Positions 55 to 37,725 of a DNA stretch of 64,000 nucleotides are shown piece by piece. Location of the stretch: the NCBI RefSeq assembly GCF_030684315.1, contig NC_081387.1, positions 1,778,497 through 1,842,496 on the forward strand, given 5' to 3'. The translations under genes were made by a program, and so were the position numbers. Under the pieces are notes generated by a model. It ran no database searches. It had not been told where the DNA came from and worked only from the letters and a program-made list of their open reading frames with translations. This stretch comes from Stegostoma tigrinum (lineage: Eukaryota). Numbering within the stretch: the stretch's first letter is position 1; every line of letters starts with the position of its first letter.

Positions 55-605
55 ACAAGATAATAACCAGCTTCAAACACACACGGTATTTACAACAGGA
101 AGTCAGAATCGACACCTCCCAGATGATTACATCTTAAAATCTAATTCAGGAATATGCCATCAACAAAACTCAGGCTGGAAATCAGAAGGGAAACGCTTCC
201 AATAAACACACTCAATATACAACACGCAGCTCCAGTCAAACAGCTCAGCACAAAGCACCGAGTAAACAGCTCTCTCAGCTGGATCTTCTCACACAGCATA
301 AGGGACATTTCCACCCCTGATTACCCACAGGACAGTCAGACTGCCTGAAGACTGGTGTGGATATTATGGGATACAATTTGTATAAAAGCTGCTCCTTCAC
401 TCACCATCTCCTCACTTGGTTTTCAGTCCCTGTAGGAAGTGAACCAGCTCTGGAAGAGGAAGAGGAGAGAATGGGCAGAGTGGGTGGGCTCTCTGATTGA
501 CGTCTCTCACAGCCAATCTGAATATTTCTGCAGCAACATGAGTTTCCTAAAGTTTGAAAAACTGACCGGTGAAATGGAGGTGACTTTCAGCAGCAGATCA
601 GGTTC
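55..605 (-). promoter_or_regulatory. ZNF promoter/exon-1 cassette, copy 1 (points out of the window)
   Basis: Homologous to 3020-3585, 30465-31465 and 37045-37725. On the - strand: CCAAT (gattgg), CRE-like gacgtca, GC/CACCC box, ETS acttcc, then ATG|GTGAGT (ATG at 405-407). TATAAAAG on + at 381-388. Confidence 0.65.
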
Positions 606-1049
606 AAAACACTCGGATGTGAACATAAGGAATAGATTCTTCACATTTTAAATGGAGTAGCTTTTTCATGTCGGTACCGTCCTTCGAACACACATGAGAA
701 GGTACAGCATGCGTTAGATAGAGTCAAACTCAGTCTAAACTACTTCTGGGCAGTTGGATTTACCCACGTCACTCATACCCGGTACGGGATCAAGACGCTC
801 TTGCTTCAGTCAATGCTGTATTACTAAATCTAATGTCATTGGAGGGCGGATGGTGTGCTGAAATAGGTAGTAAACGTTTACAGAACCAGGTGGAGATGAT
901 TCAGCTCCGCAAGACCAGTTAGAATTTGAATACATGACGGCTGATCCCTGCTAAATGTAGGAACAGCAGGAGGTCATTCAGACCCTCATGCCAATTCGAA
1001 TCTTACTGTCGTAAATCAATCAATTTAATCAATGCCTCGAAAGGGGAAT

Positions 1050-1685
1050 CGCAGGTAGACAGTGCGCTGAGTAGGCGTTTGGTACACTTGCCTTCATTGA
1101 TCAGTGCATTCAGTTTCGGCGTTGGAACGTCATATTGCGGCTGTCCATTGGTGAGGCCATTTTTAGAATAGCGCACACACTTCTGGTCTCCCCACTATAG
1201 GAAAGATTTTGTTCAGCTTGAAATAGTTTAGTAAAGCTTTACAAAGATGTTGGTGGGATTGGAGATCTTGAGCTACTGGGAGAGGCTTTTACCCTGGAGC
1301 ATTGGAGGTTGAAAAGTTACCTTTTAGAAATTCATAAAATCATGAGGGGCATAGTTGGGTGAATAGCCAAGTTCTTTTTTTCCCAGGTTAGGGGAGCCTA
1401 TAACTAGAAGGCATAATTTAAGGTGTCAGGAGAAAGATTTAAAAGGGTCTTGAAAGGCAACTTTTTCACACTAATGGTGGTGTATGTATGGTACAAGCTG
1501 CCAGAGGAGTTGGGTACAATTGCAATATTTAAAAGGCAGCTGCATAAATACATGAGTCAGAAGAATTTAGATGGATATAGGCCAAAGGCTGCCAAATGGT
1601 ATTAGATTAGTTTAGGATATCTGGTCATTGCAGACGAGTTGACTGAAGGTTATGTTTCCATGTTGTATGACTCTCTTACTCTATC
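1050..1685 (+). mobile_element. CR1-clade LINE 3' fragment, decayed
   Basis: ORF2 C-terminal motifs (LVRP.LE, FWSP, NFFT..VV..W..LP) and a gactct-type tail. Confidence 0.85.
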
Positions 1686-1945
1686 TGTGACTTTAACTGA
1701 CATTTCAAAATAGTGATTGTGCTGGGGTATTGGGAGATGACAGGATTTGTCTGGGAAGTGGTGTGGACATTATTCTGAGTGTTGTGCTAGTGTTCAGCTT
1801 GGGAGATGTATTGCATTACTTTGTATCCCTGGCAAGCAATTGGCAGAATGAGAATGGGCTGGATCAGAACTGCCCAGGTAGTTTCATCTGACAAACAGAA
1901 TGTGACGATGACTTTGAGATTTATTTCAAGGCAAACATTTTCTTT

Positions 1946-2013
1946 AACCCCAGAACTTGAACCCACAATCCTAGCTCAGGAGACTAGTGCCTTATTTACC
2001 AGGACACTGGGAC
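1946..2013 (-). pseudogene. tRNA-Arg(CCT) pseudogene
   Basis: Reverse complement GTCCCAGTGTCCTGGTAAATAAGGCACTAGTCTCCTGAGCTAGGATTGTGGGTTCAAGTTCTGGGGT aligns with vertebrate tRNA-Arg-CCT as recalled. The anticodon stem CTAGT/GCTAG around CT-CCT-GA is intact; the 3' strand of the T-stem is deleted. Confidence 0.8.
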
Positions 2014-2554: not shown

Positions 2555-2685
2555 TCGAGTCAGTGGATGTGAAACGTTAATTCGGTTCACTCTCCTCAAA
2601 TCTCCTCGACCTGCTGAGTTTCTCCAGCAATTTTTGTTTTTGTTTGTTTCAGGTCTCCAGAATCCACAGTTTTTATTTTGTTTTA
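2555..2685 (+). mobile_element. Penelope-like 3' terminal fragment (family B)
   Basis: gaaacgttaa...gacctgctgagtttctccagcaattt is shared with the ends at 10617-10750, 28555-28655 and 44130-44580. Confidence 0.65.
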
Positions 2686-3019
2686 AGTTTGGTGTGGGAT
2701 ACTACTCAGAGGAACTGGAGAAGTGAATAGACTGATATATCCTGGGAGAAGGGAACAGACTGAAACGTTTCAGGAGATGGGAAAGAACCAGGGCATCCTG
2801 AGAGAGGAACTGGGCAAATTAAAGGTTGAACATTACAAATTGGAGTTGCGGAGAGCTGAACTTCCACGGGAGTCGAACCTTCAACAGGGCAGTGCAGTCA
2901 GACTCAACACAGCTGAGATTCACACAGCGAGCCCCAACTCTCTCCCTGGGTCACAGAGCAATATGTCATATTTCTCTCTCCTATTCTCCTCTATCTCTTC
3001 CTGGTATACTTTCTCTCCA

Positions 3020-3585
3020 TTGCCGTGTTCTTCTGTGGGTCTTCCTCTTCTGATCTGCTGTCAAAAATATCCGAAGCTGCGCATCCGACAGTGATGTCAT
3101 TTTGAAGGCTAACAAAAATAAACAAGCTATCCCTACACTAGAAATCTCGACACCAGCTGCAATAAGTGAGTTTTTATTCACATGGGACAATGCAAGTTTA
3201 AATCTCCACCTAAACCGCTGCTCAAAATCACCTCCATTTCACCGGTCAGTTTCCCAAGCTTCAGGAAACACATGTTGCTGCAGAAATAGAGATAACAAAG
3301 TGTGAAGCTGGATGAACACAGCAGGCCAAGCAGCATCCTGAGATGCTGCTTGGCCTGCTGTGTTCATCCAGTTTCACACTTTGTTATCTTGGATTCTCCA
3401 GCATCTGCAGTTACCATAATCATGGCTGCAGAAATATTTGGATTGACTGTGAGAGACGTCAATCAGAGAGCCCACCCACTCTGCCCACTCTCTCCTCTTC
3501 CTCTTCCAGAGCTGGTTCACTTCCTGTAGGGACTGAAAACCAAGTGAGGAGATGGTGAGTGAAGGAGCAGCTTTTATACAAATTG
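3020..3585 (+). promoter_or_regulatory. ZNF promoter/exon-1 cassette, copy 2; likely first exon of the ZNF at 8452
   Basis: 3425-3585 is near-identical to the other copies. Donor ATG|GTGAGT at 3554/3555; matching acceptor ttttacag| at 7946. Confidence 0.65.
3289..3424. mobile_element. Penelope-derived mini fold-back insertion
   Basis: 48-bp stem (3290-3337/3342-3389, one G-T pair) with a 4-nt loop; 12-bp TSD gctgcagaaata at 3277-3288 and 3425-3436. Confidence 0.9.
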
Positions 3586-4324
3586 TTTTCCGGCAGCTAC
3601 TCCGAGAGTTACTGCTGGTGAGCTGAGTCAATAATCAGCAGCGAGGTTCTGGTTTGAATTCGATACGTAGAGAGGAGGTGAGTGAAATTTGATTTGAAGG
3701 AGATAAATGTGTTATGCATCGCTTTGTCCTTTTCTCGATCATTCATTCACCTCTTGTGGAACTGCAGACAGCTTGTTGAACTGGAGACTTAGCCTTGCTC
3801 ACCAAGGCTGTTATATTCAGTCTGCCTTTTGGAGAGAGGTGGCCTGGGAAATGTTCAATGAAGAATTTTGGGGAGAACACAGAATAGATTTACAGGAATA
3901 GTTTCAAGATTGAGGAATTACAATTACTTGGATAGACTGGAAAAGAGTAGAGTAGAAGAGCCAATGAGTACACTTGGTAGATATATTTAAAATCCTGATG
4001 GGCAGGAGAGTCATTGTTTGTTTAGCCACTTCAGAGTCAATCATATTGTGTGGAACTGGAGTCACATGTAGACCAGACCAGACAGTTGTAGCACTTTCCC
4101 CTCCCTGAATGACAATATCTGGGATTTTGAGGTTGTCTAAAAAGCTTGCACAATTTTGTTTTGAATTTATTCTACAAATTTCAAATGGAATGGTTGAAGT
4201 AAAGAGCAGAGATGCCTTTAAGGGAATTAAACAAGCACATGAGGGGAAAGGAACAGAAGGACTTGCTGATAGTGTGAGATGAAGAGGAGTGGAGGGAGGT
4301 TCAATAGCATAAACAACCGTATAG

Positions 4325-7300
4325 ATCAATTGCTGCAAAAGCTCAGAAGGTTTGGCAGCATCTGTAAAGAAAAAATCAGAGTTAATATTTTAGGTGTGGT
4401 GACCATTCCTCAGAACTGATGGTGGCTGGGGAAAAGTTGATTTATAAACAGAAAACAGGGAGAGAGAGATGGGGTAGGGAGTAAATGATAGCTTAGAGCC
4501 AGAAAAGAGAGAAGAGCAGTTGGATAGACATAGGAGTTGATAACAATAGACAATAGATGCTGGAGTAGGCCATTCGGCTCTTTGAGCCAGCACCACCATC
4601 CATTATGATCATGGCTGATCATCCACAATCAGTATCCTGTTCCTGCCTTATCCCCATAACCCTTGATTCCACTATCTTTAAGAACTCTATCCATCTCTTT
4701 CTTGAAAGTATCCAGAGAGTTGGCCTCCACTGCCTTCTGGGGCAGAGCATTCCATATGTCCACCACTCTCTGGGTGAAGAAGTTTTTCCTCAACTCTGTT
4801 CTAAATGGCCTACCCCTTATTTTCAAACTGTGTCCTCTGGTTCTGGATTCACCCATCAGCGGAAACATGCTTCCTGCCTCCAGAGTGTCCAATCCCTTAA
4901 TAATCTTATACGTCTCAATCAGATCCTCTCTCATCCTTCTAAACTCAAGTGTATACAAGCCCAGTCGCTCCAATCTTTCAACATATGATAGTCCCGCCAT
5001 TCTGGGAATTGACCTCGTGAACCTACGCTGCACACCCTCAATAGTAAGAATGTCCTTCCTCAAATTTGAAGACCAAAACTGCACACAATACTCCAGGTAC
5101 GGTCTCACCAGGGGCCTGTACAGCTGCAGAAGGACCTCTTTGCTCCTATACTCAATTCCTCTTGTTGTGAAGACCAGCATGCTATTAGCTGTCTTCATTG
5201 CCTGCTGACCCTGCATGCTTGCTTTCATTGACTGATGTACAAGAACACCTAGATCTCGTTGTACTTCCCTTTACCTAACTTGACTCCATTGAGATAGTAA
5301 TCTGCCTTCCTGTTCTTGCCACCAAAGTGGATAACCACACATTTATCCACATTAAACTGCATCTGTCCACTCACCTAGCCTGTCCAAGTCACCATGTATT
5401 CTCATAACATCCTCCTCAGATTTCACACTGCCACCCAGCTTTGTGTCATCAGCAAATTTGCTAATATTACTTTTAATGCCTTTATATCATTAATATTGTA
5501 AACAGCTGCGGTCCCAGCACCAAACCTTGTGGTACCCCACTGGTCACCGCCTGCCATTCAGAAAGGGACCCATTTATCACTACTCCTTGCTTCCTGTCAG
5601 CCAGCCAATTTTCAATCCAAGTCAGTATTTTGCCCCCACTACCATGTGCCCTAATTTTGTTTACCAATCTCCTATGCGGGACTTTATCAAAGGCTTTCTG
5701 AAAGTCCAGGTACACTACATCCACTGGTTCTCCCTTGTCCATCTTCATAGATACATCCTCAAAAAATTCCAGAAGATTAGTCAAGCATGACTTCCCCTTC
5801 GTAAATCCATGCTGACTCTGACCTATCCTGTTACTGCTATCCAAATGAGTCGTAATTTCATCTTTTATAATTGACTCCAGCATCTGTCCCACCACTGACG
5901 TCAGGCTAACCTGTCTATAATTCCCTGTTTTCTCTCTCCCTCCTTTCTTGAAAAGTGGGACAACATTAGCCACCCTCCAATCCGCAGGAACTGATCCTGA
6001 ATTTATAGAACATTGGAAAATGATTACCAATGCGTCCACGATTTCTAGAGCCACCTCCTTAAGTACCCTGGGATGCAGACCATCAGGTCCCGGGGACTTA
6101 TCAACCTTCAGACCTAACAGTCTATCCAAAACCATTTCCTCCCTAATATAAATTCCCTTCAGTTCATCCATTCCCCTAGCTCCTTCAGCCACTATTACAT
6201 CTGGGAGATCACTTGTGTCTTCCTTAGTGAAGACAGATCCAAAGTACCTATTCAACTGTTCTGCCATTTCCTTGTTCCCCATAATAAATTCACCCGTTTC
6301 TGACTTCAAGAGCCCAATTTTAGTCTTAACCATTTCTTTTCTTTTCACATATAAAGATCTGGCTCGAAGGGTGAATAGTTGTTCATGGACAATTTAGTGA
6401 CTAACAGTAGGTAGTGTGTAATGGCAGAGTATGTGATAGCAAGACCTGGTGTGCGGGATGGCGGAGATCAGGACATGGGAGAGTTCAGGCCCTAAAACTA
6501 TTGAACTTGATATTGACTCCAGAGGGCTGCAGAGTCACCAAGTGGAAAATGAGGTGTTGTTCTTCCAGCTTTCGTTGAGCTTCGCTGGAACACTGCAGCA
6601 AGCCAGAGGCGGAGATGTTGGCCAGGGAATAAGGTGGTGTATTAAAGGGGCAGGCAACAGGTAGCTCAGGGTCTTTTTTTGCGAGCAGAATGTGAATTTT
6701 CTGTGAAGTGGTCACCCAGTCTATGCTTTTTTTTCCCCCAATGTAGGAGACCATATTGTGAGCAGTGAGTGCATTAGAACTAGATTCTGGGAAGTGCACG
6801 TGAAGTGTTGCTTCACCTGGAAGGTATGTTTGGGCCCTTGGAAAGTGGAGCAGGAGTAGGGAAATGGACAGGTATTGTTCCTTCGCTGGTTGCAGGACAA
6901 GGTGCTGTGGGGCTGTCGGGAGGTATTCAGGATGAAGGAAGAGTAGAGCAGGGTGTCCCAGAGGGAATGGTTCCTGTGGAAGTTGTACAAGTGAGGGGAG
7001 GGGAATATGTGTCTGGTGATAGCTGTCACTGGAGGTGGCAGAAATGGCATCTGATGAAAAGGGTAAGCCTATCGTTCTGTGGGAGGGAAGAGGAGGGTGA
7101 GGGTGGAAGTGCGGGAGATGGGTCGGAGCTGGTTGAATGCCCTGTCGAATACAATGCTGGGGAATCCTCAGTTGAGGAAGAAGGTGGACATTTCAGAGGC
7201 TTCCTTCTCAGTGGACTTCATCTGAACATATGTGACAGAGACGGAGGAACTGAAAGAATGGGATGGAGTCTTGAAAGGAAGCAGGGTGTGACGATGTCTT

Positions 7301-7625
7301 GTCCGGGTAGCTGTGGGAATCAGTGAGTTTATAGTGGATATTAGTGGCCAGTTCATCCCCAGAAATGGAAACAGAGACGTCGAGGAAGGGAAGGGAGGAG
7401 TCAGAGATAGACCAGGTGGAAGTGAAGGCAGGATGGAAATTGGAAGCAAAATCGATTAACTTTTCCAATGCCAGACAAGAGTGGGAAGTAGCACTGATGA
7501 TGTCATCAATGTATTGGAGAAAGAGTTGTGGGTGGGGGCCAGAATAGGGTTGGAACAAGGAATGTTCCACATACCCCACAAAGAGACAGGCATGACTGTG
7601 GATACCCAGCCACCCCTCTGACTTG
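4325..7625 (-). mobile_element. Penelope-like retroelement (family B), decayed RT and GIY-YIG, split by a CR1
   Basis: ORF pieces YIDD, LPFLDVSV, HYKLTDSHSY, CNQRRNNTC, SYIG, KLEEQHLIFHL. The 3' end (4325-4540) resumes at ~6351 after the insert. Confidence 0.9.
4541..6350 (-). mobile_element. CR1 LINE, 5'-truncated, relatively young, nested in the Penelope
   Basis: ORFs 5482-6348 (KSPGPDG, YLDFQKAFDKVPH, GVPQG) and 4629-5228 (LVRPYLEYCVQFW, FFTQRVV); (ctattgt)n tail. Confidence 0.97.
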
Positions 7626-8451
7626 AAGAAAATGAGAGCTCATAGCGATTTACTAGCGTGTTTTACACTCTGCCCGACTTTATTGCAATGCCCTTATGGT
7701 GCCTGGGAAGATGTGGTGGGGCGGGGTAGGTCTGAGTGGAGGAGAGATATTTTATATATATATTGTCTCCTCCTGGTTCCAGACAGGTGAGGTAAAAGAA
7801 AAGACTTGCACCTGATTCCCTCCCTCAGACTGGGAATAGCAAACTGGCACTCACTGTGGAACCGTCTCGAACTAAGGAGTCAGTCCCCTACAGCAAAGGA
7901 GGAAAGGGAGTTGGAAGAAATCATGTTTCCTTTTACTGTTTTACAGAAGGACTGCACTGTGCTACACCAGAGAATACAGAGAAGATAAACATTGCAAATA
8001 GATCCTGACGATTACCCAAGGAATAACTGATGAACTGCTGGAAGACATCCAATCTCTTCATAGCCTTGCTGAACCAAGAGGCGGTTGGTCAGTGAAACCA
8101 CAATCTGGAAATTGGTCGGGTCAGAGGAACTTTGACATATCATCAGATCTGAAACTGGTCAGAGCCTTATATCAGAACCAGCCTTTCTGAAGGTTCGGCT
8201 GAGGGTGATCAGTCGGGGGAGGCTGGGAAGAAGTGTGTGTGGCTCCAAGTGTGGTGAGATCATTCATTGAGCCTTAAGAGACTTATTCCTACAAGTGAGA
8301 GGTTGAACCTCTTGTGTTTGAGGTGTACAAAGAAGGTTCACAGTTTGACAATATTTCTAGACACACAAGGTATATCTGTTGTGTAACAGTTAACACAACT
8401 GAAGCCATCTGGAAAAGAAACCAATCACAGTTTGATGCACAATCAAGGCTC

Positions 8452-9408
8452 ATGACTAACCGACGTACTCACCTGAGAGAGAAACCATTCACGTGCGAGG
8501 TCTGCAACAAAACATTCTCAGAATCCTCAAACCTCCGCAGACACCGACGCATTCACACAGGGGAGAAACCGTTCACATGTGACGTGTGTGATAAATCATT
8601 CTCGCAGTCAGAGAACCTGCTGAGACACCAACGCATCCACACAGGGGAGAAGCCATTCACTTGTGAAGTGTGTGACAAATCATTCTCAGAATCAGAAAAC
8701 CTTCGCACCCATCTACGTACACACACTGGGGAAAAACCATACACGTGTGAGGTGTGTGACAAATCATTCTCCCTCTCCTCTACCCTCCGCAAACACCAAC
8801 ACGTTCACACAAAGGAAAAACCATTCAAGTGTGAGGTGTGCAACAAATCATTCTTAGACTCTTCGACTCTCTGCTCACACCAACGCATTCACACAGAGGA
8901 AAAACCATTCACGTGTAAGGTGTGTGACAAATCATTCTCTAACTCATCAACTCTTTGCAAACACAGACGTATTCACACAGGGCAGAAACCATTCAGATGT
9001 GGATTTTGCGAGAAGGCTTTCACCAACTCCTCTGATCTGCTGAAGCACCAACACATTCACACGGGAGAAAAACCATTCACTTGCAAGGTGTGCTGTAAAT
9101 CATTCTCGGCATCATCATCCCTCCGCACACACCAACGCTTTCACACAGGGGAGAAACCATTCACGTGCAACATTTGTGAAAAGGCTTTCACCATCTCATC
9201 TGATCTCCTGAAACACCAATACATTCACACAGGAGCAAAACCATTCCCGTGCAAACTGTGTAATAAATCATTTTCACAGTCGACAAATCTCCGCAGACAC
9301 CAACGTGTTCACACAGGAGAGAAACCGTTCACATGTGAGGTGTGTGACAAATCATTCACGGAGAGATCAAATCTTCACAGACACCAGCGCATTCACACTG
9401 TGGAGTAA
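8452..9408 (+). CDS. Tandem C2H2 zinc-finger protein, 11 fingers (ZNF-A)
   Basis: Uninterrupted ORF with 11 CxxC-12-HxxxH units and TGEKP-type linkers. First in-frame ATG at 8452; the frame is open from 8314. Confidence 0.9.
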   Translation: MTNRRTHLREKPFTCEVCNKTFSESSNLRRHRRIHTGEKPFTCDVCDKSFSQSENLLRHQRIHTGEKPFTCEVCDKSFSESENLRTHLRTHTGEKPYTCEVCDKSFSLSSTLRKHQHVHTKEKPFKCEVCNKSFLDSSTLCSHQRIHTEEKPFTCKVCDKSFSNSSTLCKHRRIHTGQKPFRCGFCEKAFTNSSDLLKHQHIHTGEKPFTCKVCCKSFSASSSLRTHQRFHTGEKPFTCNICEKAFTISSDLLKHQYIHTGAKPFPCKLCNKSFSQSTNLRRHQRVHTGEKPFTCEVCDKSFTERSNLHRHQRIHTVE

Positions 9409-10615: not shown

Positions 10616-10616
10616 C

Positions 10617-11045: not shown

Positions 11046-11049
11046 GCCC

Positions 11050-13600: not shown

Positions 13601-13746
13601 TTTTGCCTTTTTGTATGCTTGGTTTCCTAGGTAATTTGTGCTTAACTTGTGAGTGGATTTATTGGAAGCACTTCCTTTCTGGTTTAGAGATTGAGGTTTG
13701 TTGATGGTTCATTCTTAATCTGAGAAGGTGAGATTGAGATGTCATT

Positions 13747-14068
13747 AGGGCGGCACGGTGGCTCAGTGGTTAGCACTGCAGCCTCACAGCGCCAGGGACC
13801 CGGTTCAATTCCAGCCTCGGGTAACTGTCTGTGTGGATTTTGCACATTCTCCCCGTGTTTGCGTGGGTTTCCTCCGGGTGCTCCAGTTTCCTCCCACAGT
13901 CCAAAGATGTGCGGGCTAGGTGGTTTGGCCATGCTAAATTGCCCATAGTGTTCAGGGGTGTGTGGGTTATATAGGGATGGGGATGGGTCTGGGTGGGATG
14001 CTTCAAGGGGCAGTGTGGACTTGCTGGGCCGAAGGGCCTGTTTCCACACTGTAGGGAATTTAATCTAA
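13747..14068 (+). mobile_element. HE1-type V-SINE, full length
   Basis: Head ggcggcacggtggctcagtggttagcactg; V-domain gtgggtttcctccgggtgctcc.gtttcctcccacagtccaaaga; CR1-derived tail. Confidence 0.93.
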
Positions 14069-14400
14069 TGTATTATCTGGGAGGTACAGAGTGTCTGAAG
14101 ATACTTCCTGATTTCAATTGTATGTGTGTGAGAGAGAACTGGTTATTACTCTTTGGACTGTGAATGATCAGTTCTGATTGTGTATTTGAATCAGAATGTT
14201 AACTTTTGTCAAATCTCGCCAACACCCACCACGACCAAATCTCTGTAACCGTCTCTGAAAAGGAAATGAAGATTTACAACATGAAGAGCCTTTCACGACC
14301 ACCAGATGTCCCAGAGTGATTTTCAGCCAAAAAAGTACTTTTTAAAATATCGTCACTCTCGATATGAATTCCTTTGAGTTTTGCCCTGGCTGGTCCGAGG

Positions 14401-14716: not shown

Positions 14717-15043
14717 AATCACAGAATCCATAGTGTGGAAACAGGCAATTCAGCCCAACAACATGCTGACAGCATCCCATGTAGACCTATCTCCCAACCC
14801 TTTCCCTGTAACCCTATTTATTTCTGATTGGCTAATGTACCTGACCATACGTCCCTGAACACTGGGCAATTTAGCATGGCCAGTGCACCAAATCTGCACA
14901 TTTTTGGACTGCCAGGAAACCAGAAACCTACATAGACATGGGGAGAATGTGCAAACTGCACACAGACAGTTGCCTGAGAGTGGACTTGAACCAAGACACT
15001 GGCAATGTGAGGCAGGACTGCTAATCATTGAGCCACTATGCTG
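14717..15043 (-). mobile_element. HE1-type SINE
   Basis: Homologous to 13747-14068. It interrupts a segment paralogous to 3620-3940. Confidence 0.85.
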
Positions 15044-15819: not shown

Positions 15820-17100
15820 TACATCGCAGATAGATCCTGACCATTACCCGAGGAACAGCTGCGCAACTGTGGGAAGATATACAATCCCTTCACAGTACTG
15901 ATGAACACAAAGAAGGTTGGGCAGCGAAACAACCATCTGGAAATCTTTTGGGTCAAGGGAGCTTTGACACATCATGAGATCTGAAATTGATCAATGGTCT
16001 GCAGCCTCCCATCAGCACCAACCTTTCTGAAGATTTAGCAGTGGATGGTTGGTCAAGGTGAAGCTGGGAAGAAGAGTGAGTGGCTCCAAGTGTAGATAAA
16101 GCTTCAATCATTCATTCAGCCTCAGGAATCATTTCTACAGGTGAGAGGCTATTCAAATGTGAGGTGTGTGAAGAGGACTCCAAAGGCTTGTAAAATCTCC
16201 TGACACACAACGTGCATCTGTGGAGTAACTATTAACAAATGAATAGTTACACGGAAGAGAAACCTTTCAAGTGTGAGTTGTGTGATCGAGCTTTTAAATA
16301 GTCATTGATGTTTCTAAATTACCGTTGCATTCATGCAGGGGAGAAACCATTCAAATGTGATGCGTTGAACCAGAGCTTTGCCTATTCACATGGGGGAGGA
16401 ATCATTTAGGTGCATGGTGTGCAGTAAATTATTATCACAGTCACTGACACTCCTCATACGCCAACATGTTCATATGGGGAGAAACCACTTATGTGCAACG
16501 TGTGCAACAAATCATTCTCAACATCATCAGACCTTCGAATATACCTTATATATTCTTACAGGGGAGAGACCAAACTGTGGGAAGAGTCATTCTTGTCATC
16601 ATCAGTTCTCCATGTGCATCAATGCATTCATACAGAAGAGACTGGTCAGATATAAAGTGTGTAACACGTTGTTCTCACAGTCAGGAAATCTCTGCACATA
16701 CCTTTGCACCCACACAGGGGAGAAACTGTTCAACAGTAAAGTGTCCGAAAGATCAGTTTCTGCTTCACCAGAGAATTCAGACAGGGGAGAAACTATCCAC
16801 TGGGCCATGTGCAGTAAATCATTCACAAAGTCATAGAATCTCCTGTTCCCTCACAGGATCCACATAGGAGCGTGAAGGACTTATCATGGAACTTTCATGA
16901 TGTCTTCGCTCATCCAGAGCACCACAGGATTCAAACAATGGAGAGAGTCTACAGGTGCAGTGTTTGTGACAAGGTTTTTGTACAGTCAGCATTTCTCTTC
17001 ATCAGTACAGCCACCCGGGAGAGAAACCGTTTAGTGTGACTTTTGTAATTAAATATTAACAGTTTGTAAACCTTATGGAACATGAATGAGTCCACAAAGG
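15820..17100 (+). pseudogene. C2H2 ZNF pseudogene 1, with part of the shared leader
   Basis: 15820-16250 is homologous to 7990-8420. It is followed by frameshifted, stop-containing fingers; ACG occupies the start-codon position (~16250). Confidence 0.88.
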
Positions 17101-20029: not shown

Positions 20030-20330
20030 TTGCTCCAAATACATTCAAATGAATTTCCAGAAGCTTGAGAAAATTTACTGGTGAAACAGGGGTGACTCTC
20101 AGCAGCAGATCAGGTGTGGATTTAAACTTGTCATTGTCCCATCTGAATAAAACCTCAATGACTTATTACAGCTGTTGTCCCAGTTCCCCTGGCAATCATT
20201 TAACAGAAATGGCTAGTGTGACAGAAGCATTCTTCGTCCTCAAAGACTTTCAAACTGACATCAATGTGGGATGTGTAGCCTCAGATGTGTTCAGATCAGA
20301 AGAAAAAGACCCACAGCATCCAAGGCAATG
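20030..20330 (-). repeat. Partial cassette, copy 3 (upstream arm only, no core)
   Basis: ggtgaaacaggggtgactctcagcagcagatcaggt...ctgaataaaacctc...aagacccacagcatccaaggca matches the reverse complement of 37045-37300. Confidence 0.85.
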
Positions 20331-23749: not shown

Positions 23750-24660
23750 AAGACCAGAAGGTGTAGGAACAGAAGTAGCCCATTTGGCCCATCAAGTCTA
23801 CTCTGCCATTCAATGGGATTGTGGCTGATCTTATAATCCTCAAGTCCACTTTTGCTGTCTCTTCTCCATATGTTTGTTTCTCTTGCTAATAAAAATCTGT
23901 CTTTCCCAACAACTCATTCTCAGCAGACCTGCACAGAAAAGCATTCACGGATTCTAGGTGGCATGGTGGCTCAGTGGTCAGCACTATTGCCTCACAGCAC
24001 CAGGGCCCCAGGTTTGATTCCACCCTTGGGCGACTGTGTGTGCAGAGTTTGCACATTCTCCCTGTCCCTGCGTAAGCTTCTGCCAGGTGCTCCGGTTTCT
24101 ATTCACAGTCCAAAGATGTGCCAGTTAGATGGATTGGCCATGCTAAATTGTCCAGGGATGTGTAGGTCAGGTGCCTGAGCAAAGGGAATGCAGGATTAGG
24201 GTCTGGTAAGATGGTTCAGATGGTCTGTGTGGAGTCAAAGAACTGAATGTCCTACCGTACACAGTGGGGATTTTATGACAGATTCACTATCCTCTGAGAG
24301 AAATATTTTATTACTGTTTTAAATGGGTGACTCTTCACTCTAGGATTATACATTCTCGATCTAGACACTCCCACATGGGGAAACAACTTTTCCACATCTA
24401 CCCTGTCAAGTTACTCAGAATCTTGTATGTTGAATAGGTCTCCACTCACTGTTCTAAACACCAACGATACAAGCCCAACTGACTCAACTTCTCATACGAA
24501 AATCCATCCATACCTGGAATCAAATTACTGAACCTTCTCTGGACTGCATCCAATGCTGGTAATTTCTTTCCTTAGTAAAGTCACCAAAACTGTTCGTGGT
24601 ATTCCTGCTGAGATCTGACTAGAGCCTTGTACAGTTTTAACAAGACCTCCATATTTCTAT
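23750..24660 (-). mobile_element. CR1 3' fragment with a nested HE1 SINE (+, ~23957-24277)
   Basis: CR1 C-terminal homology on both sides of an HE1 head and V-domain. Confidence 0.8.
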
Positions 24661-25807: not shown

Positions 25808-26671
25808 TCACATTTGAAAGGCTTTTCCCGTGTGAATGTGCCGGTGATTTAACAGGCCTGATAACTGTGCAAAGCCTTTATTACACACTTCACATGTGAA
25901 AGCTTTCTCTCCTGTGTGAAGGCGAAGGTGTTCACGGAGAATAGAGGATCGTGAAAATGACTTGTCACACTCTGTACATCTGAATGGTTTCTCTCCAGTG
26001 TGAGTGCGTTTGTGTGTGTGAAAGTGAGATGAACGTGAGAAAGACTTGTCACAAACCTCACATTTGAATGGTTTCTCCCCAGTGTGAATGCGTCGGTGCT
26101 GTATAAGTGTTGATGACTGCGTGAAGGCTCGGTCACAAATCTCACACTTGAAGGGCTTCTCCCCTGTATGTATCCTCTGGTGTGTCAGGAGATCTGACAA
26201 TTGGACAAAAGATATCTCACAAATCTCACATTTGAAGGGTTTGTCCTCTGTGTGAATCCTCTGGTGTGTGAGAAGCCTTGTAGACGTTGCGAAAGCCTTT
26301 TTGCAAACATCACACTTGAAGTGTTTCTGCCCTGTGTGAACTGCCTGATGGACCAGGAGGTTTGATGACTGTGTGAAGGATTTGTCACACACTTCACAGG
26401 TGTACAGTTTCTCCCCTGTGTGAATGCGCTGGTGAGCGCGCAGTATCGATGACTGTGAAAATGATTTGTCACACACCTCACATGAGAACGGTTTCTCCCC
26501 TGTGTGGATGCGTTGGTGTGCACGGAGGTTTGAAAAATGTGAGAATGGTTTGTCACACACCGCACACATGAACGGCTTCTCCCCTGTGTGACTGCGTTGG
26601 TGAAGGCTGAAGTGGGATGAGCGTGAGAATGATTTGTCACACACTTCACATTTGAATGGTTTCTTTTCCAT
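25808..26671 (-). CDS. Tandem C2H2 zinc-finger protein, 10 fingers (ZNF-B)
   Basis: ATG in strong context (aagATGG), MEKKPF start, 10 intact fingers. Predicted intron 30834-27145 links it to cassette copy 4. Confidence 0.92.
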   Translation of the reverse strand: MEKKPFKCEVCDKSFSRSSHFSLHQRSHTGEKPFMCAVCDKPFSHFSNLRAHQRIHTGEKPFSCEVCDKSFSQSSILRAHQRIHTGEKLYTCEVCDKSFTQSSNLLVHQAVHTGQKHFKCDVCKKAFATSTRLLTHQRIHTEDKPFKCEICEISFVQLSDLLTHQRIHTGEKPFKCEICDRAFTQSSTLIQHRRIHTGEKPFKCEVCDKSFSRSSHFHTHKRTHTGEKPFRCTECDKSFSRSSILREHLRLHTGEKAFTCEVCNKGFAQLSGLLNHRHIHTGKAFQM

Positions 26672-27910
26672 CTTGCTTCTTGAGTTTACAGTAGATGCGA
26701 AAGATGTGCCTTGTTTGTTGGGAAATCTTACGAGACTGTGCAGTCCTCCTCTGCATCACCTGAACAGCCTCTCACCTGTTAAAAAAGTCAGTAGTTCATG
26801 AGGCTCAATGAATGATTGAACCTCTTGCCACACTACGAACACAGTCATACTTCTTCCCAGCCTCACCCTGACTGGTCACTTACAGCCGAATCTACAGAAA
26901 GGCTGGTTCTGATGGAAGGCTCCACAACACTGACCAGTTTCAGATCTGATGATTAGTCAGAGCACCCGCGACCCAACCGATTTCCAGGATGATGGTTTTA
27001 CTGCCCGACCTTCTGTCGTGAGCAATGCTGTGAACAGACTGGATATCTTCCTACGGTCTTGCAGTTGCTCCTTGGATGATGGTCTGTATCCAGCTGCAGT
27101 GTTTCTCCTCTCTGCATTCTCTGATGTCGTACAGTGCAATTCTTCTGTAAAACAGGAAAAGGAAACATGATTTTCTCCAACTTCCTATCCTCCTTTGCTG
27201 AAGGGGTTGACTCCTCAGTTAGAGGCTGTTCCACAGCGAATTCCGGTCTCCTATTTCCTGTGTGGGGAGATGGGGGGAATTCATATGTAATTCCTCTTTT
27301 TTTCCTCATTGTCACAATGCTGTTTCCAACAGGGACACTGGATACTGACCAGGACCAGACAATATGGCTACTTTCTTTTGTCCGCCCAGACCCCATCTTC
27401 CCAGACAAGATGAGCACAATGATTTAGGTGGAACATCAAAAAAGCCATCTATTTGCTGTGAGCTTGCATCACTGAATCGTACCAATCTGGAAACACCTGA
27501 GACTCCTCTGCCACCATCCCTGGGAATGTCGCATCCCACTGGCATGTGGGAAGTCCTTAGTGTTGACTGCATGGTGTTTCATGCCTTCAGGTCAAATAAG
27601 TTCAAGAAAAATTACCACTCCCTTCCCATTTTAATGAGTACTTCACCGTGTTCATTATCACCAGGGAAGCAGATTGAGGACAGATCCCCAAGCTGGGGGT
27701 CGATGAGATGTATTGATACATCAGCAGCAGCAGGATTGTATTCCACTACAATGTAAACAGCCTGCTACGGTCTCATTCCATGATTATCATCAGACTACTG
27801 GATGGACATCAGCAGTGATCTTATTGATGGCAGGGTAGGATTGGGAGACCAAATGAACTACTTCTGATCTTAAGACATGTATGTTCATAGCAGAACACAT
27901 TGCATTGTTG

Positions 27911-30120: not shown

Positions 30121-30464
30121 TAATTGTATCTTTTATCGTATCTTTTTAAGAGCTTTTCAGTTTCTATGGAATCTGAGGAATCTCGCAAAAACACCATTAA
30201 AAAGGTGTATATCCAAAATATAACACTGAAATTGTGGGATTGTACTGTGCACAGCTTTACTGCCAAGTTACCTACACAGAAATAGTATCCACACTTACCA
30301 AAAAAAACTCATTACCTGTAAAAAGCATTGTGACATCTGGTGATGATTAGAAGTTCTATATAAATGTTTTATTATCTCAAGCGAGATGGGGTGGAGGTCT
30401 TGAAGCAATTTAAAAAAGGAAACATCCAGATCCGAACACACCCAGAGAACTAACCATTTCCAGT

Positions 30465-31465
30465 CCAGACGATAATAACCAGCTCCCAACACACACAAAA
30501 CTCCACAAGAGGAAATGACGAACAACCCTCAGACAGTCGGCACGTTCCAGATAGTTACACCTCAGCTTCTCATATTCAGGAATAAGCCATTAACAAAACT
30601 CAGGCTGGAAACCAGGAGGGAAATGTTTCCAATAAACACACTCAATATCCAACACACAGCTCCAGTCAAACAGTTCAGCACAAAGCACCGAGTAAACAGC
30701 TCTCTCAGCTGGATCTTCTCACACAGCATAAGGGACATTTCCACCCCTGATTGTCCACAGGACAGTCAGACTGCCTGAAGACTGGTGTGGATATTATGGG
30801 ATACAATTTGTATAAAAGCTGCTCCTTCACTCACCATCTCCTCACTTGGTTTTCAGTCCCTGTAGGAAGTGAACCAGCTCTGGAAGAGAAAGAAGGGGAA
30901 GTCGAGAAGCGCGAGCCCAGAATGGCTTGGCGCTTATGAGTTATGGTATTAAACTGTTAACAGCGTTTCTCGTTTTTCTATTTTTTCGTAAGAATGACTC
31001 CAATTTTTTTTAGCTTTGTTTTCATTGCTTTTCTGCTTTGTATCTTAGATTCTGAACCCCCTTACGATTCAACCTTAGAGGGCATGGTGGGTGGCAACTT
31101 GCAAACTTTAACATGTGACAATAAAACTCATTCCAAATTAATTAAAAGGCTATAATGGTTAGAGTGGGTGGGCTTGTGATTGACGTCTCTCACAACCAAT
31201 CCAAATATTTATGGAGCAACATGAGCTTCCTAAACTGGGAAACTGATAGGTGAAATGGAAGTCAGTTTGATTTAAAGGTAGGATTTAAAGTTGTCATTGA
31301 CCCATCTGAATAAACCCCCACTGATTGCTTTCTCAGTTCCCTTCGTGAATGTTTGACATAGATTTTCTGTATGGGAAGAGCATTCTTCAAGCCTGGGAGG
31401 TTTTCAAACTGACAATCGATGTGTGAGATGTGTGGCCATGGATGTAATTAACAGCAGATCAGAAG
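30465..31465 (-). promoter_or_regulatory. ZNF promoter/exon-1 cassette, copy 4; likely first exon of ZNF-B
   Basis: 30661-30888 differs from 231-458 at only 3 positions. ATG at 30835-30837 followed by GTGAGT; ~255-bp insertion at ~30897-31152. Confidence 0.65.
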
Positions 31466-32353
31466 ATTAATTGCCAACAACATCAGTGTTTTCTGCAAAT
31501 TATCACTTTGAAGAGAAAGGGTGATTGGAAATAGAATGGAATTGAAAGTATGGAAGGTGAACAGATTTTTTTTAGAAAGATGACAGAATCAGGTTCAAAA
31601 TGCAGAATACCTGAAGAGAGGGAACTGTGAACAACCTTGGTGAACATCGGGACCAGGAAGGGATGTTGAATGATCAGTTTAGTGAGAATCAGCTCGAAGG
31701 AACAGGAGATTGGTCTCATGGACACAATGAGCTCAGGGAGATAATGAGGGGAGATAGGAGACGAAGGTGAGCGTTCAGGGTTAGGCCAGTGGAGTGAAGA
31801 TTTCCCAGGTGGATTGGTGGCAGAAAGGGAAATGGTCTGAACAGAGAGGCCAATTACAAGGGAGCAGCGATTTAAAATCAGTGATGAAAGCATTAGAGGG
31901 CTGAGGGGTATATATTTTTCTCCGAGAAGGTGGTGAGGAATTGGAACTCATTTCAGAAATCATCATCACTCTGTTTAAAAAAGAGACTTGGATACAAGCT
32001 TGAACAAATAGCTTGTGCACATTTAAAATAAAATTGAAATAACTTTACAACATTCACACTGTCCAGCAACCACACACCTGGGAAATTACATAGTAGATTA
32101 CATTCAGAGTCAATCTCTATCTATACTGCCCCTGGCCTGTAGGATTAAACCAGGTCATTCTCACACCTGGAACAGGAACAAGACTCACTTACCGAAGCTA
32201 TTCAGAAGTTCCTATGTAACTGACCTTGATAGCATTGGATGTCATGTTTGAAGCAAGACCACTGCAAATTGGAGAGGGCAACTACCAGACGAGTGATGGG
32301 CGAACATACTGTAGCTCAGTCTCACTGAGGAATAACACAGATTTTCAGACAGT

Positions 32354-34050
32354 GATCAGAGATAATGGGAACTGCAGATGCTGGAGAATCCGACTTAACA
32401 AAGTGCAGAGCTCGATGAACACAGCAGGTCGAGCAGCATCTGAGGAGCACAAGAGCTGACGTTTTGGGCCTAGATTCTTCGTCAGAAAAGGGGCATGGGG
32501 AGAGGGTTCTGAAATAAATAGGGAGAGATGGGGAGGCGGACTGAAGATGGATAGAGGAGAAGATAGGTGGAGAGGAGAGTATAGGTGGGGAGGTAGGGAG
32601 GGGATAGGTCAGTCTGGGAAGGACGGACAGGTCAAGGGGGCGGGATGAGGTTAGTAGGTAGAAAATGGAGGTGCGGCTTGAGGTGGGAGGAGGGGATAGG
32701 TGAGAGGAAGAGCAGGTTAGGGAGGTGGGGACGAGCTGGGCTGCTTTTGGGATGCAGTGAGGGGAGGGGACAAGCTGGGCTGGTTTTGTGATGCAGTGGA
32801 GGGAGGGGAGATTTTGAAGCTTGTGGAGTCCACATTGATACCATTGGCATGCAGGGCTCCCAAGTGGAATATGAGTTGCTGTTCCTGCAACCTTCGGGTG
32901 GCATCATTATGGCACTGCAGGAGGCACAGGATGGACATGTCATCTGAGGAATGCGGGAGTTAAAATGGTTCACGACTGGGTAGTGCAGTTGTTTATTGCG
33001 AACTGAGCGTAGGTGTTCTGCAAATTGTTCCCAAGCCTCCGCTTTGTTTCCCCAATGTAGAGGAAGCCGCAACGAGTACAGCAGATGCAGTATACTACAT
33101 TGTCAGATGTGCAGATGAACATCCACTTGATGTGGAAAGTCATCTTGGGGCCTGGGATGGGGGTGAGGGAGGAGGTGTGGAGGCAAGTGTCGCACTTCCT
33201 GCGGTTGCAGGGGAAGGTGCCAGGTGTGGTGCGTTTGGAGGGGAGTGTGGAGCGGAAAAGGGCGTCCCGGAGACAGTGGTACCTTCCTCTGCAGCCGCAG
33301 GAAGTGGTACACTTGCCCCCACACCTCCTCCCTCACCCCCATCCCAGGCCCCAGGATGACTTTCCATATCAAGCGGATGTGGTATACTGCATCCGCTGTA
33401 CATGATGTGGCTTCCTCTACGTTGGGGAAACCAAGTGGAGGCTTGGGGACCGCTTTGCAGAACACCTACACTTGGTTCACAATAAACAACTGCACCTCCC
33501 AGTCGCGAACCATTTTAACTCCCCCTCCCATTCCTTAGATGACATGTCCATTCTGGGGCTCCTGCAGTGCCACAATGATGCCACCTGAAGGTTGCAGGAA
33601 CAGCAACTCACATTCCACTTGGGAACCCTGCAGCCCAATGGTATCAACGTGGATTTCACAAGCTTCAAAATCTCTCCTCCCCTCACTGCATCCCAAATCC
33701 AGCCCAGCTCATCCCCGCCTCCCTAACCTGCTCTTCCTCTCACCTATCCCCTCCTCCCACCTCAAGCCGCACTTCCGATGCCTATCTACTAACCTCATGC
33801 CACCCCCTTGACCTGTCCATCCTCCCCAGACTGACCTATCCCCTCCTTACCTCCCCACCTATACTCTCCTCTCCACCTATCTTCTCCTCGATCCATCTTC
33901 GGTCCGCCTCCCACTCTGTCCCTATTTATTTCAGAACCCTCTCCCCATCCCCCTTTCAGATGAAGGTTCTCGGCCCGAAACGTCAGCTTTTGTGCTCCTA
34001 AACTGCTGCTCGACCTGCTGTGTTCAACCAGTTCCACACTTTGTTGTCTC
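32354..34050. mobile_element. Penelope-like element (family A), inverted fold-back, older
   Basis: Arms 32354-~33280 (-) and ~33281-34050 (+), GIY-YIG remnants, 13-bp TSD attttcagacagt at 32341-32353 and 34051-34063. Confidence 0.95.
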
Positions 34051-34539: not shown

Positions 34540-36000
34540 AAAGGAACTTTATTGGCTATGGATGTTCTGGGGTTACAAAAGGTAATGTGAAAAAATAATT
34601 CTTTCTTTCAGTGTTCAGTAATGTTCTGCTTCCTGTGAACTGGTCATGATAAACCCATTGATAGAGAAAGTATCCCAGCCACAGAGACTTTGACCAATAT
34701 ATCGTATATAGGACACTTCCTAGAGGATCCTGAATGTTTCAGTGAATAGGAACACCAGGCTGGCAGATAATGTAGTTTGTTTTAAATTTTAAAAAGTATG
34801 TTCATTACAGATTATAAATCTGTACAGGAAGTTGAGCAAACAACAGATACACAACAACTTAATATTCAGCTTATGCCATACGTTGAATTAATCAAAATAA
34901 CAAAACATTTGAAAATTCTTCAAGATCCTTCTCCCAGCATGAAATGAAACTTGGAAGAGTACAAGATGAACATATTATACCGTTATTATATCGAAGTATG
35001 ATTGCTAAGGAAGCTCACCATATTCAAGACAGTAGTCTTCCCAATCAGGACAGTACAAACTCTATCCATGGTATTAATCAAAACATATGTCACTTGAAGA
35101 GGATTTGTTTATAAATCACCAACTAAAGCAGGATCTGATTCTATCGCACACCCTCTCGGAAAGTTGGCTCACTTTACCAACATACACACCCTCACATCAG
35201 GGAAAACTCTCAGAATACAACAGACACATTTTTTTTGTAAAATACCTGTGCTTTAGGCTTGCTCCCAATTCTGATGGTCAGAAATGACACCAAACTTCAA
35301 TGATACAGGATTGAGATTGGGGGTTCCATCATACAAACAGACCAATGGCCACAGAGAATGATAATATGGGTTCATAGAGCAAACAGTTTCCATTCCTTAC
35401 CCCAGATGAGTCGGACAGGACTTTGTAATTTGCAACTCTCTGTCCTCCATTGACCACAATCCTACTATCGCCTCCAACCTGCTTTAACCATTGTTGATTT
35501 CCACGCATTTTACTCTCTTGTAGTCAGTTTCCTTATTGATTCAGTCTACGAAAGAAAATTTGAGTATATCCAGTGCACAACTGATTTAACCATTCATCCC
35601 ACATCAAGCAGTAGTGATTCTGCTGACCTCTGTCAGAACTGTTTAGTATTCCAGGTCCATCCCAAAGAGAAAAGATAATCCACAACTTCCCCTTCCCAAA
35701 ACCAACTTTGTCTTGTGGAAGTTGTGTTCCAGCTGTGTGGAGTTCTGTTTAGACCCCGTCTAGAGAACTGTGTTCAGTTCTGGGTACCACTCTTCAGGAA
35801 GGATATACTGGTCATGGAAGAAGCAGAATGTAGATTCACCACAAGTGTTCCTGGGGTAAAAAGATTTATTTATGATAACAGGTCACACAGACTGAGATGC
35901 AATCCTTAGAGTGTGGAAAATTAAGGTGTAATCTTAATAGAGGTATTTAAGATGATTTAACAAGCTGATAGCAGCAATTGGAGAGAAAGTATTTGTCTGG
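34540..36000. repeat. Segmental duplicate: 3' flank of ZNF-C, paralogous to 22580-23610
   Basis: Same colinear blocks as 22580-23610, in the same orientation. Confidence 0.85.
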
Positions 36001-36105
36001 CAGGAAGGACAGGGGAGCAGTGTTTAGATCCAGGCTGTGTGGGGGTGATTCCCAATGTCAGTGACCATGTGAATACTTGTCACATTCTTACACTTAAATG
36101 GTTTC

Positions 36106-36981
36106 TCACATATGAATCCTCTGATGCAACAGGAGCTTTGAAGAGCTGGAGAAGGATTTGTTGCACATATCACATAAAAATGGTTTCTCCCCAGTGTGAA
36201 TGCGTTGGTGCACACGGAAACTGGATGACCTTGAGAATGATTTGCTGCACACGTCACATGTGAATGGTTTCTCACCAGTGTGAATGCGCCAGTGACTGAC
36301 CAAGGTTGATGACTGTGCAAATCCCCTGTTACACACCTCACACTTGAACGGTTTCTCTCCAGTGTGCATGCGTTGGTGCACACGGAGGTTCCCCGACTTC
36401 AAAAAACCTTGGTCACACACCTCACACTTGAATGGCTTCTCCCCAGTGTGGATACGTTGATGCTTGAGGAGTAGCGATGATTGTGTGAAGGCTCGCTCGC
36501 ATACCTCACACTTGAAGGGCTTCTCCCCCGTGTGAATCCTCTGGTGTATCAGGAGATCAGAGGAGCAAGTAAAAGATTTTTCACATTCTGTACATTTGAA
36601 TGGTTTCTCCCCTGTGTGAATCCTCTGGTGTATCAGGAGGCTTGTAGACTTCAAAAAGGTTTTATTGCAAACCTCACATTTGAACGGCCTCTCCCCTGTG
36701 TGAATGCGTTGATGTGTGCGGAGATTTGAGGACACTGAGAATGATTTGTGGCACACTTCACATGTGAACGGTTTCTCACCTGTGTGAATGCGCCGGTGTT
36801 TCACGAGAGCTGATGACTGTGTAAAACCCCTGTTACACACCTCACAAGTAAATGGTTTCTCCCCTGTGTGAATGTGTTGGTGATTCACAAGCGTTGATGA
36901 CTGTGTGAATGCGTGGTCACACACTTCACACTTAAATGGCTTCTCTTCCATTTGGCCGTCTTTGTATTTAACTTGGTACAT
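36106..36981 (-). CDS. Tandem C2H2 zinc-finger protein, 10 fingers (ZNF-C)
   Basis: 10 intact fingers. In-frame ATGs at 36981 and 36951 (MEEKPF, homologous to the ZNF-B start). Confidence 0.92.
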   Translation of the reverse strand: MYQVKYKDGQMEEKPFKCEVCDHAFTQSSTLVNHQHIHTGEKPFTCEVCNRGFTQSSALVKHRRIHTGEKPFTCEVCHKSFSVSSNLRTHQRIHTGERPFKCEVCNKTFLKSTSLLIHQRIHTGEKPFKCTECEKSFTCSSDLLIHQRIHTGEKPFKCEVCERAFTQSSLLLKHQRIHTGEKPFKCEVCDQGFLKSGNLRVHQRMHTGEKPFKCEVCNRGFAQSSTLVSHWRIHTGEKPFTCDVCSKSFSRSSSFRVHQRIHTGEKPFLCDMCNKSFSSSSKLLLHQRIHM

Positions 36982-37044
36982 AAGATGCAGCTTGTGGGTC
37001 AGGAGATTGTGTTGAGCTTGTGCAGCCGTCCACACAAACTTGAC

Positions 37045-37725
37045 TGCCTTGGATATGTGGGTCTTCTTCCTCTAATTTCCAGTTAAACACATACGAGGCC
37101 TCACTAATGTAAAAGCCTTTGAGGATGAAGAATGCTATTCCCACTCTAGAAATCGCTGTCAAATATTTACCAGGGGAACTGAGAGAGCAACTGCAATAAA
37201 TGAGGTTTTATTCAGATAGGGCGATGACAAGTTTAAATCCCCACCTGATCTGCTGTTCAAAGTCACCTCCGTTTCACCGGTCAGGAAACTCATGTTGCTG
37301 CAGAAATATTTGGATTGACTGTGAGAGACGTCAATCAGAGAGCCCACCCACTCTGCCCACTCTCTCCACTTCCTCTTCCAGAGCGGGTTCACTTCCTATA
37401 GGGACTGAAAACCAAGTGAGGAGATGGTGAGTGAAGGAGCAGCTTTTATACAAATTGTATCCCATAATATCCACACCAATCTTCAGGCAGTCTGACTGTC
37501 CTGTGGGTAATCGGGGTGGAAATGTCCCTTATGCTGTGTGAGAAGAACCAGCTGAGAGAGCTATTTACTCGGTGCTTTGCGCTGAACTGTTGACTGGAGC
37601 TTGTATATTGTGTTGGACATTGTGTTTGTTGGAAGCATTTCCCTTCTGATTTCCAAGCTGAGTTTCGTTGCTGGCTCATTCCTGAATATGAGAAGGTGAG
37701 CTGTATTTGGGAGCTGGTTATTATT
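37045..37725 (+). promoter_or_regulatory. ZNF promoter/exon-1 cassette, copy 5
   Basis: Core ~96% identical to copy 1. Donor at 37426/37427, matching acceptor ttttacag| at 38519. Its back end abuts ZNF-C. Confidence 0.65.

Follow-up and report, generated by a model that had tools for sequence, protein, structure and literature searches.

For a cluster of C2H2 zinc-finger genes in the shark Stegostoma tigrinum (NCBI RefSeq assembly GCF_030684315.1, contig NC_081387.1, positions 1,778,497 to 1,842,496 of the forward strand), comparison of the gene copies suggested that a core at their 5' ends is probably kept alike by interlocus gene conversion that recurs and begins at the open promoter. The whole stretch of 64,000 nucleotides (nt) that was analysed is called the window here. 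The data strongly suggest repeated overwriting of about 300 nt around exon 1 and its splice donor, in tracts of a few hundred bases. The process is a known one, of which the cluster is a new example from a family and a lineage not described before in this respect; next to it, a promoter was probably captured. It implies that zinc-finger genes can evolve in concert at their 5' ends while the DNA-binding arrays diverge, and that 97-99% non-coding identity among paralogues, even beside a pseudogene, need not mean selection or co-regulation.

The cassette copies and genes are labelled A to G, and positions within the cassette are given relative to the splice donor. In the window, three array genes were identified with an intact open reading frame (ORF), B, C and F, and two that are decayed, D and E; the gene belonging to copy A lies to the left of the window. 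The intact arrays consist of 11 (B), 10 (C) and 10 (F) fingers in tandem within one exon, and their finger helices are unlike each other, as had been stated in the original prediction. Each unit is composed, in this order, of an upstream flank, a motif block, exon 1, the donor, an intron, the acceptor, a non-coding leader and the finger array, with exon 1 being short, non-coding and ending in an ATG at a consensus donor. For the exon-2 leaders of B, C, D and E a star tree was obtained, with informative sites split 5/6/6. Alignment showed that the units are old tandem and inverted duplicates of a predicted two-exon, effector-less C2H2 zinc-finger gene, which radiated nearly simultaneously and then drifted to about 23% divergence. 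No KRAB or other effector domain was identified among the Pfam matches listed (best 25 per protein).

The core is far more alike than these units are elsewhere. Copies A (231-458) and C (30661-30888) differ at 3 of 228 positions without a gap, reproducing the predicted value, and the nine or so differences predicted between A and the inverted copy D (37375-37600) were resolved into 7 substitutions and two 1-nt deletions. Copy B (3420-3586), also predicted to be similarly close, is 97.0% identical to D and 95.3% identical to A over 169 columns. The leaders of B, C, D and E, in contrast, differ by 22.5-24.2% in all 6 pairs, as expected from the predicted 75-80% identity, and the four-fold sites of the arrays by 44-68% over the registers tried. 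With the centre of the cassette being 0-5% different, the 5' end is thus much more alike among the paralogues than the rest of the gene. Against a background of 23%, the binomial chance of 3/228 is 7e-22, and permutation of the mismatches gave p values between 0.0002 and 0.010 for the longest stretch of identity in each of the 6 pairs.

The similarity falls off gradually on both sides, so that the description of the flanks as uniformly 75-80% identical did not hold. Pooled over copies A to D, divergence on the intron side is 0/192 at +1..+32, 2/141 at +33..+80, 6/151 and 7/138 up to +175, 28/231 at +175..+260 and 21/81 past that; going upstream, and leaving out C above its insertion, it is 4/168, 8/192, 8/192, 21/192 and 17/74. 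The profile is therefore a two-sided tent with its minimum at the splice donor, rising from 0% at +1..+32 to 1-5% as far as -130 and +175, then to 11-12% and to 23-43% farther out; the fitted tent is centred near +20 and decays over about 75 nt. The remnants E and G, which have lost the core, show the full background distance.

Several observations argue that the core was overwritten in pieces. The nearest neighbour of a copy switches by segment: D is closest to A at -200..-131 (3/54) and to B at -130..-67 (0/64), while A is identical to C for 134 nt from -54, and the core intron of D is 5-6/140 away from A and C. All three informative sites of the core, few as they are, join B with D (AC|BD), in contrast to the star of the leaders, and one of the three abolishes the canonical CCAAT in B and D. 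For sites at which three core copies agree, E and G differ at 18/94 compared to 30/282 for the controls (one-sided p=0.028), an excess of about 2-fold which indicates that the shared core moved off its ancestor instead of being frozen.

Copy D was correctly predicted to be intact although its sense gene is dead. The D array (38844-39953) contains about 18 frameshifts and 8 stops in 13 finger remnants, followed by a duplicated piece at 40836-41027, and the 11 remnants of the E array show 6 stops and about 17 frameshifts. The frameshifts are probably overcounted in both, because single fingers were roughly aligned with fingers that are not their orthologues. In the last 60 intron nucleotides, D carries 6/60 private changes compared to 33/311 in its leader, which is the neutral rate. 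For live B and C, only 2 private changes each were found there, against 30/311 each in the leader; this constraint on the acceptor supports the predicted splice. D is thus evolving at the neutral rate at the acceptor and has a ruined array, while its core is still only 0-4% different from the others, which favours conversion over selection, since conversion requires no function of the recipient. Within the dead D array, an internal duplication (39640-39819 and 40836-41018) was also noticed, the first approximately 80 nt of which are near-identical.

As a mechanism, DNA breaks in open promoter chromatin, the likely trigger, would be repaired from a paralogous copy, with conversion tracts starting near the donor and running for a few hundred bases. 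The similarity probably goes back to ordinary selection on promoter and donor and would then have become self-sustaining, while insertions and deletions would detach pieces from homogenisation. Instead of being adaptive, the homogenisation may be a side effect.

Copies with such insertions and losses were found. In B, a hairpin resembling a Penelope end is inserted at -130, the upstream edge of the motif block; it is a young insertion, flanked by a perfect 12-bp target-site duplication (TSD), with arms differing at 2/49 positions (one at the edge) and a sequence matching the ends of the Penelope elements in the window. Homology of B with the other copies breaks sharply at +33, so that the approximately 170 nt of intron predicted to belong to the homogenised tract are reduced in B to 32 nt; as gene B is intact, +33..+175 appears dispensable. 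Copy C carries an insertion of about 254 nt near -60, for which neither another copy in the window nor a clear TSD was found. The C motif block lying behind it has diverged by 8/63 (12.7%) from each of A, B and D, compared to 3/228 for the exon and intron of C (p=3e-4), and here the prediction of a cassette uniform across copies failed. The remnants E and G are complementary halves of a cassette in opposite orientations, jointly missing about 270 nt that are the most homogenised in the other copies. They are possibly one unit broken by an inversion; no homology that would join their outer ends was found. As homology between the introns is gone nearly throughout, we do not propose that rearrangement breakpoints are in excess at the core. 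That the unit begins at about -410 with a constant end like that of a transposon was considered and rejected, because A and C share sequence farther upstream.

The core would correspond to a TATA-less promoter with exon 1 and donor, promoter activity and splicing being predicted from the sequence. A motif scan of A, B and D revealed a CRE-like site (-100), a CACCC box (-84) and an ETS site (-36), with the motif block extending from -130 to -67 and no TATA box; an inverted CCAAT at -113 is present in A and absent as a canonical box from B and D. These labels refer to what we take to be the consensus sites. Motifs of the CRE-like, CACCC and ETS types are uncommon in the window, with 0.014-0.059 expected per 130 nt. 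The donors (404/405, 3554/3555, 30835/30834 and 37426/37427) and acceptors (7947, 27144 and 38520) are canonical GT/AG sites with pyrimidine tracts, so that the predicted junctions 3554-7947, 30835-27144 and 37426-38520 all have the required sites in the DNA. A uniform regulatory module giving cluster-wide co-regulation, as originally proposed, was not supported, because the identity peak lies off the motifs and each of the three live genes has a disturbed or absent module: B has the insertion and a non-canonical CCAAT, in C the block is displaced by about 254 nt, and F has no sense cassette.

Coding roles of the 5' region were considered as well. The exon-1 ATG was rejected as the start of the finger protein, as it opens just short upstream frames of 14 (B), 49 (C) and 14 (D) codons at the predicted acceptors. 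A coding role of the leader was rejected for lack of a third-position excess (41/157). An antisense frame of 92 codons in the upstream flank (20053-20328) was rejected as negative in Pfam; its third-position excess (68/181, p=0.13) is not significant, and no homologue was found among 56 candidates of 162-2000 amino acids, which is weak evidence. Both the start and the end of the leader resemble decayed fingers, and at the exon-2 acceptor tandem AGs lie 3 bases apart (7947-7990 in B, 27101-27144 in C, 38520-38563 in D). Past the homology break of B (3587-3690), another donor-like site was noticed at 3678; it does not align to the core and might mark an alternative first exon. Flanked by short inverted repeats, a site of two bases (432-433, 3526-3527 and 37398-37399) reads in A and C opposite to B and forms a perfect palindrome in D, as in a template-switch micro-inversion.

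A number of points weigh against gene conversion as the explanation. The comparison covered paralogues inside one window of one genome, whereas conversion is defined by paralogues lying closer to each other than to orthologues, and the preference for the tent over a step profile (Akaike information criterion 980 versus 1010) is overstated, as it comes from a composite likelihood on non-independent pairs with C upstream of its insertion excluded. Neither outgroup test is strong on its own (E, p=0.052; G, p=0.20). In -54..+174, D has 6 private substitutions and 2 deletions, compared to 1 change for A and 2 for C, and relaxed selection would likewise predict that the dead gene holds the most private intron changes. 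One informative site (-28) is part of a quasi-palindrome, in which repeat mutation is likely; leaving this site out gives p=0.017, assuming a 3% internal branch. A and C share far-upstream sequence and B and D a mid-intron piece, each at about 30% divergence, and, with the leader of A outside the window, a short AC|BD branch is possible. The rise in G+C is mild (core 47-52%, flanks 40-43%, leaders 44-48%, window 42.9%), and the core is low in CpG and is no CpG island. In human duplicates conversion usually fades as divergence grows (10.1101/135152), so that its persistence at 23% needs a local hotspot or selection, and mouse KZFP clusters are reported not to be enriched for meiotic breaks (PMC11952569).

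The original prediction had left gene conversion and strong selection side by side, and of these conversion fits better. Under purifying selection alone, a promoter and first-intron module would be held near-invariant in all units, resulting in co-regulation, and the D copy would be kept through gene F. The rare CRE-like, CACCC and ETS motifs and the consensus donor would be explained by this, constraint likewise fades with distance from the start site, the private intronic changes of dead D would follow, and the fusion to F described below lends the D copy a possible function. However, about 90-95% of mutations would have to be removed over 228 nt, mostly intron, compared to an approximately 3-fold effect at the acceptor, and the identity peaks at the donor and intron, off the motifs. 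The broken CCAAT is common to B and D, intact B is without +33..+175, and the motif block of intact C is decayed, although selection should guard it best. An RNA structure was not found either, with folding z values of -0.74 and +0.25 for the core. Selection alone is thus an unlikely explanation. A single recent replacement of exon 1, or a short duplication over several old units with nothing recurrent, would account for the sharp loss of homology in B at +33; the switching of neighbours and the two-sided gradient need several events of differing extent and age, which makes it quite improbable.

Still less probable is an artefact of assembly or polishing, in which reads from one copy overwrote the others. 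Repeat collapse does yield near-identical short tracts, but it presupposes near-identity and cannot raise 77% to 98%; moreover, every copy has private differences, insertions and the smooth gradient, and the window is without Ns. The least credible alternative is a young transposable element, such as a short interspersed element (SINE), a miniature inverted-repeat transposable element or a solo long terminal repeat, which would have brought a promoter and donor along when it inserted at the 5' ends of zinc-finger genes. The copies are dispersed in both orientations at high identity, and young elements are abundant in the window. Yet at the borders of the core neither a TSD nor a terminal inverted repeat was found, the edges fade gradually and stay in register with flanks that are themselves homologous, all four copies lie in such flanks rather than in unrelated ones, and remnant E retains an old, diverged form of the distal part. 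Core 16-mers occur in the window at the four copies only, and all three testable copies, the gene of A being outside the window, lie sense-upstream of a zinc-finger leader. The core is thus linked to the duplicated zinc-finger units as their shared 5' part, as predicted, and dispersed copies with TSDs and without linkage to such genes, the proposed sign of a transposon, were not found in the window. The core as a structured RNA or tRNA was rejected, with 0 Rfam gathering matches in the window and a negative ARAGORN search; a sub-threshold sR55 match (37196-37250) lies outside the core.

Gene F provides a case of probable promoter capture. Homology to the leader extends in F up to 37049, and homology to the D flank reaches down to 37044-37045, with an overlap of the 4 nt AGGC, which implies that F lost its own promoter, exon 1, intron and most of its leader. 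The F ATG at 36951 is about 350 nt from the D motif block on the opposite strand, and a polyadenylation hexamer lies about 240 nt past the stop. Between D and the right end of the window, no further cassette or leader was found. Head-to-head genes within about 1 kb are regarded as candidates for a bidirectional promoter, and F and D lie within this spacing. The intact state of all 10 fingers of F points either to a recent fusion or to expression of F, for which the D promoter in reverse would be the simplest source; that the D promoter drives F antisense would, judged from the arrangement, have about an even chance. Dependence of F on this promoter would be a second reason for the D copy to persist. 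With the fusion there is a testable example of how the promoter of a dead neighbour, used in reverse, could rescue a gene. For ABCA17P and ABCA3, a dead and a live gene reportedly share one common 5' region (PMC1579226), whereas the arrangement here appears due to deletion of the live gene's own 5' end. Between the D core and the F array four ATGs were noticed, all in the array frame, two of them closed by stops.

The closest known system is the BGW sequence of the mammalian BEX/WEX/GASP genes, in which a few hundred bases straddling a non-coding exon 1 are alike by conversion (Winter and Ponting 2005, PMC1274310). There, 383 nt are 91% identical between BEX2 and GASP4, pseudogene copies take part, and the element was reported as confined to eutherian Xq21-22 (PMC1274310). 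Both systems have clustered paralogues in both orientations, a single coding exon and fast-diverging coding sequence. The shark cluster differs in its C2H2 arrays, its occurrence in a cartilaginous fish, the 95-100% identity, the mild G+C rise, the resolved gradient and the head-to-head fusion; BGW is backed by cross-species trees, whereas the shark case is known from paralogues in one window. The likeness would be a functional analogy, with no common descent implied. For human duplicates, non-allelic conversion has a mean tract of 250 bp (Harpak et al., 10.1101/135152), matching the width of the shark island; unlike in these duplicates, the local island persists within units that are 23% apart.

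Lineage-specific clusters like this one, with C2H2 arrays amid transposons, divergent helices and many pseudogenes, are described for mouse KZFP genes and rGUs (PMC5363842), zebrafish FiNZ-ZNFs (10.1101/2022.11.29.518450) and in a survey of poly-ZF genes (PMC2604467), where short conversion tracts were reported between paralogues. Between the shark arrays no conversion was found, the longest exact stretches in common being just 24-27 nt. The first exons of FiNZ genes are similar enough for one morpholino to target 447/684 genes (10.1101/2022.11.29.518450); unlike KRAB-ZNF and FiNZ-ZNF genes, the shark genes have no KRAB or other coding first exon. In mouse cluster 10, promoters are 'markedly divergent' on homologous units (PMC5363842), the reverse of the shark pattern. 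A search of main texts, including few subscription papers, did not find the process described for sharks or zinc-finger promoters; the available text of the whale shark genome paper (PMC8455134) does not mention 'gene conversion', nor does that of the metazoan ZNF preprint (10.1101/2022.11.29.518450) mention 'shark'. Exact matches in the protein collection were found for 0/7 proteins, and the best 120 of 2294 matches to gene F were generic zinc-finger proteins, with no named cartilaginous fish.

For the breaks proposed as the trigger of conversion, promoter-directed hotspots of vertebrates without full PRDM9 (PMC5519329) are a possible cause of promoter-centred breaks, the core here being no CpG island. 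Such breaks are plausible because the PRDM9 orthologues look partial in two cartilaginous fishes: that of elephant shark is listed with KRAB and SET, and neither its expression nor a rapid evolution of its fingers was detected (Baker et al. 2017, PMC5519329), and that of whale shark only a weakly predicted SSXRD domain (PMC5519329). In mouse clusters, H3K9me3 covers the 3' finger exons and not the promoters, which would leave only promoters exposed if sharks are alike (PMC5363842). A bolder proposal, which we regard as doubtful, is that the family promoter has been a long-lived germline break hotspot in cartilaginous fishes, homogenising the promoters, with the arrays shielded and diversifying. 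If there were such a hotspot, the promoter would also serve as a recombination handle, swapping, inverting and re-wiring promoters among arrays; F would have been captured by D, G and E would be the halves of one unit broken at the core, and the tent profile would be a fossil map of promoter-directed recombination in sharks, read from one genome. A gradient caused by promoter breaks would offer a sequence-only route to where sharks recombine and whether PRDM9 directs it.

Table 1. Positions of the cassette copies, genes and repeats of the cluster in the window.
Feature	Position	Strand	Remarks
Cassette copy A	59..603	-	distal intron 59-230, core 231-534, donor 404/405, near flank 535-603
A far-upstream sequence	606..843	-	homologous to C 31981-32239, 77/238 differences
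B upstream flank	3018..3276	+
Penelope-end hairpin in B	3277..3436	.	insertion 3289-3424, TSD 3277-3288 and 3425-3436
Core copy B	3425..3586	+	motif block, exon 1, donor 3554/3555, 32 nt of intron, then non-homologous
B intron end, acceptor (exon start 7947), non-coding exon-2 leader	7867..8451	+
Gene B, intact ORF, 11 C2H2 fingers, without effector domain	8452..9405	+
Remnant E, distal intron part only, core gone	13620..14207	+	SINE 13747-14069 inside; left edge approximate
Gene E, leader without acceptor, decayed array	15821..17100	+
Remnant G, upstream flank only	20049..20330	-	stops just short of core
Gene C, intact ORF, 10 C2H2 fingers	25811..26671	-
C exon-2 leader, acceptor (exon start 27144), intron end	26672..27223	-
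Copy C	30414..30888	-	exon 1, donor 30835/30834, homogenised intron to 30661, decaying to 30414
Insertion in C, about 254 nt	30890..31154	-	between motif block and exon 1
C displaced motif block and upstream flank	31155..31470	-	motif block 31155-31217
Gene F, intact ORF, 10 C2H2 fingers	36109..36951	-
F leader, last approximately 100 nt	36952..37049	-	joined to D flank at 37046-37049
Cassette copy D	37044..37790	+	flank 37044-37296, core 37297-37600, donor 37426/37427, decaying intron
Gene D, intron end, acceptor 38520, leader, decayed array	38441..41027	+
SINE-like copies	13747-14069, 14845-15045, 20895-21090, 23950-24198, 41133-41343, 42615-42868, 44198-44519, 49112-49314

Other elements were identified in the same window. 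Two Penelope elements with GIY-YIG ORFs (50526-52424 and 32355-34042) are inverted relative to one another and include an 881-nt inverted pair with 15 differing sites; the best named matches of the GIY-YIG ORF are proteins from Hypanus, Leucoraja, Chiloscyllium, Rhinoraja and Heptranchias, and an Atlas search confirmed GIY-YIG. The dispersed SINE-like family has about 8 copies, the closest pair of which differs at 21/316 positions. Upstream of B, at 2687-3091, a frame of 135 codons resembles a decayed coiled-coil exon and was negative in Pfam, and inside the B intron, at 4632-6393, minus-strand reverse-transcriptase fragments (RVT_1) of a long interspersed element were found.

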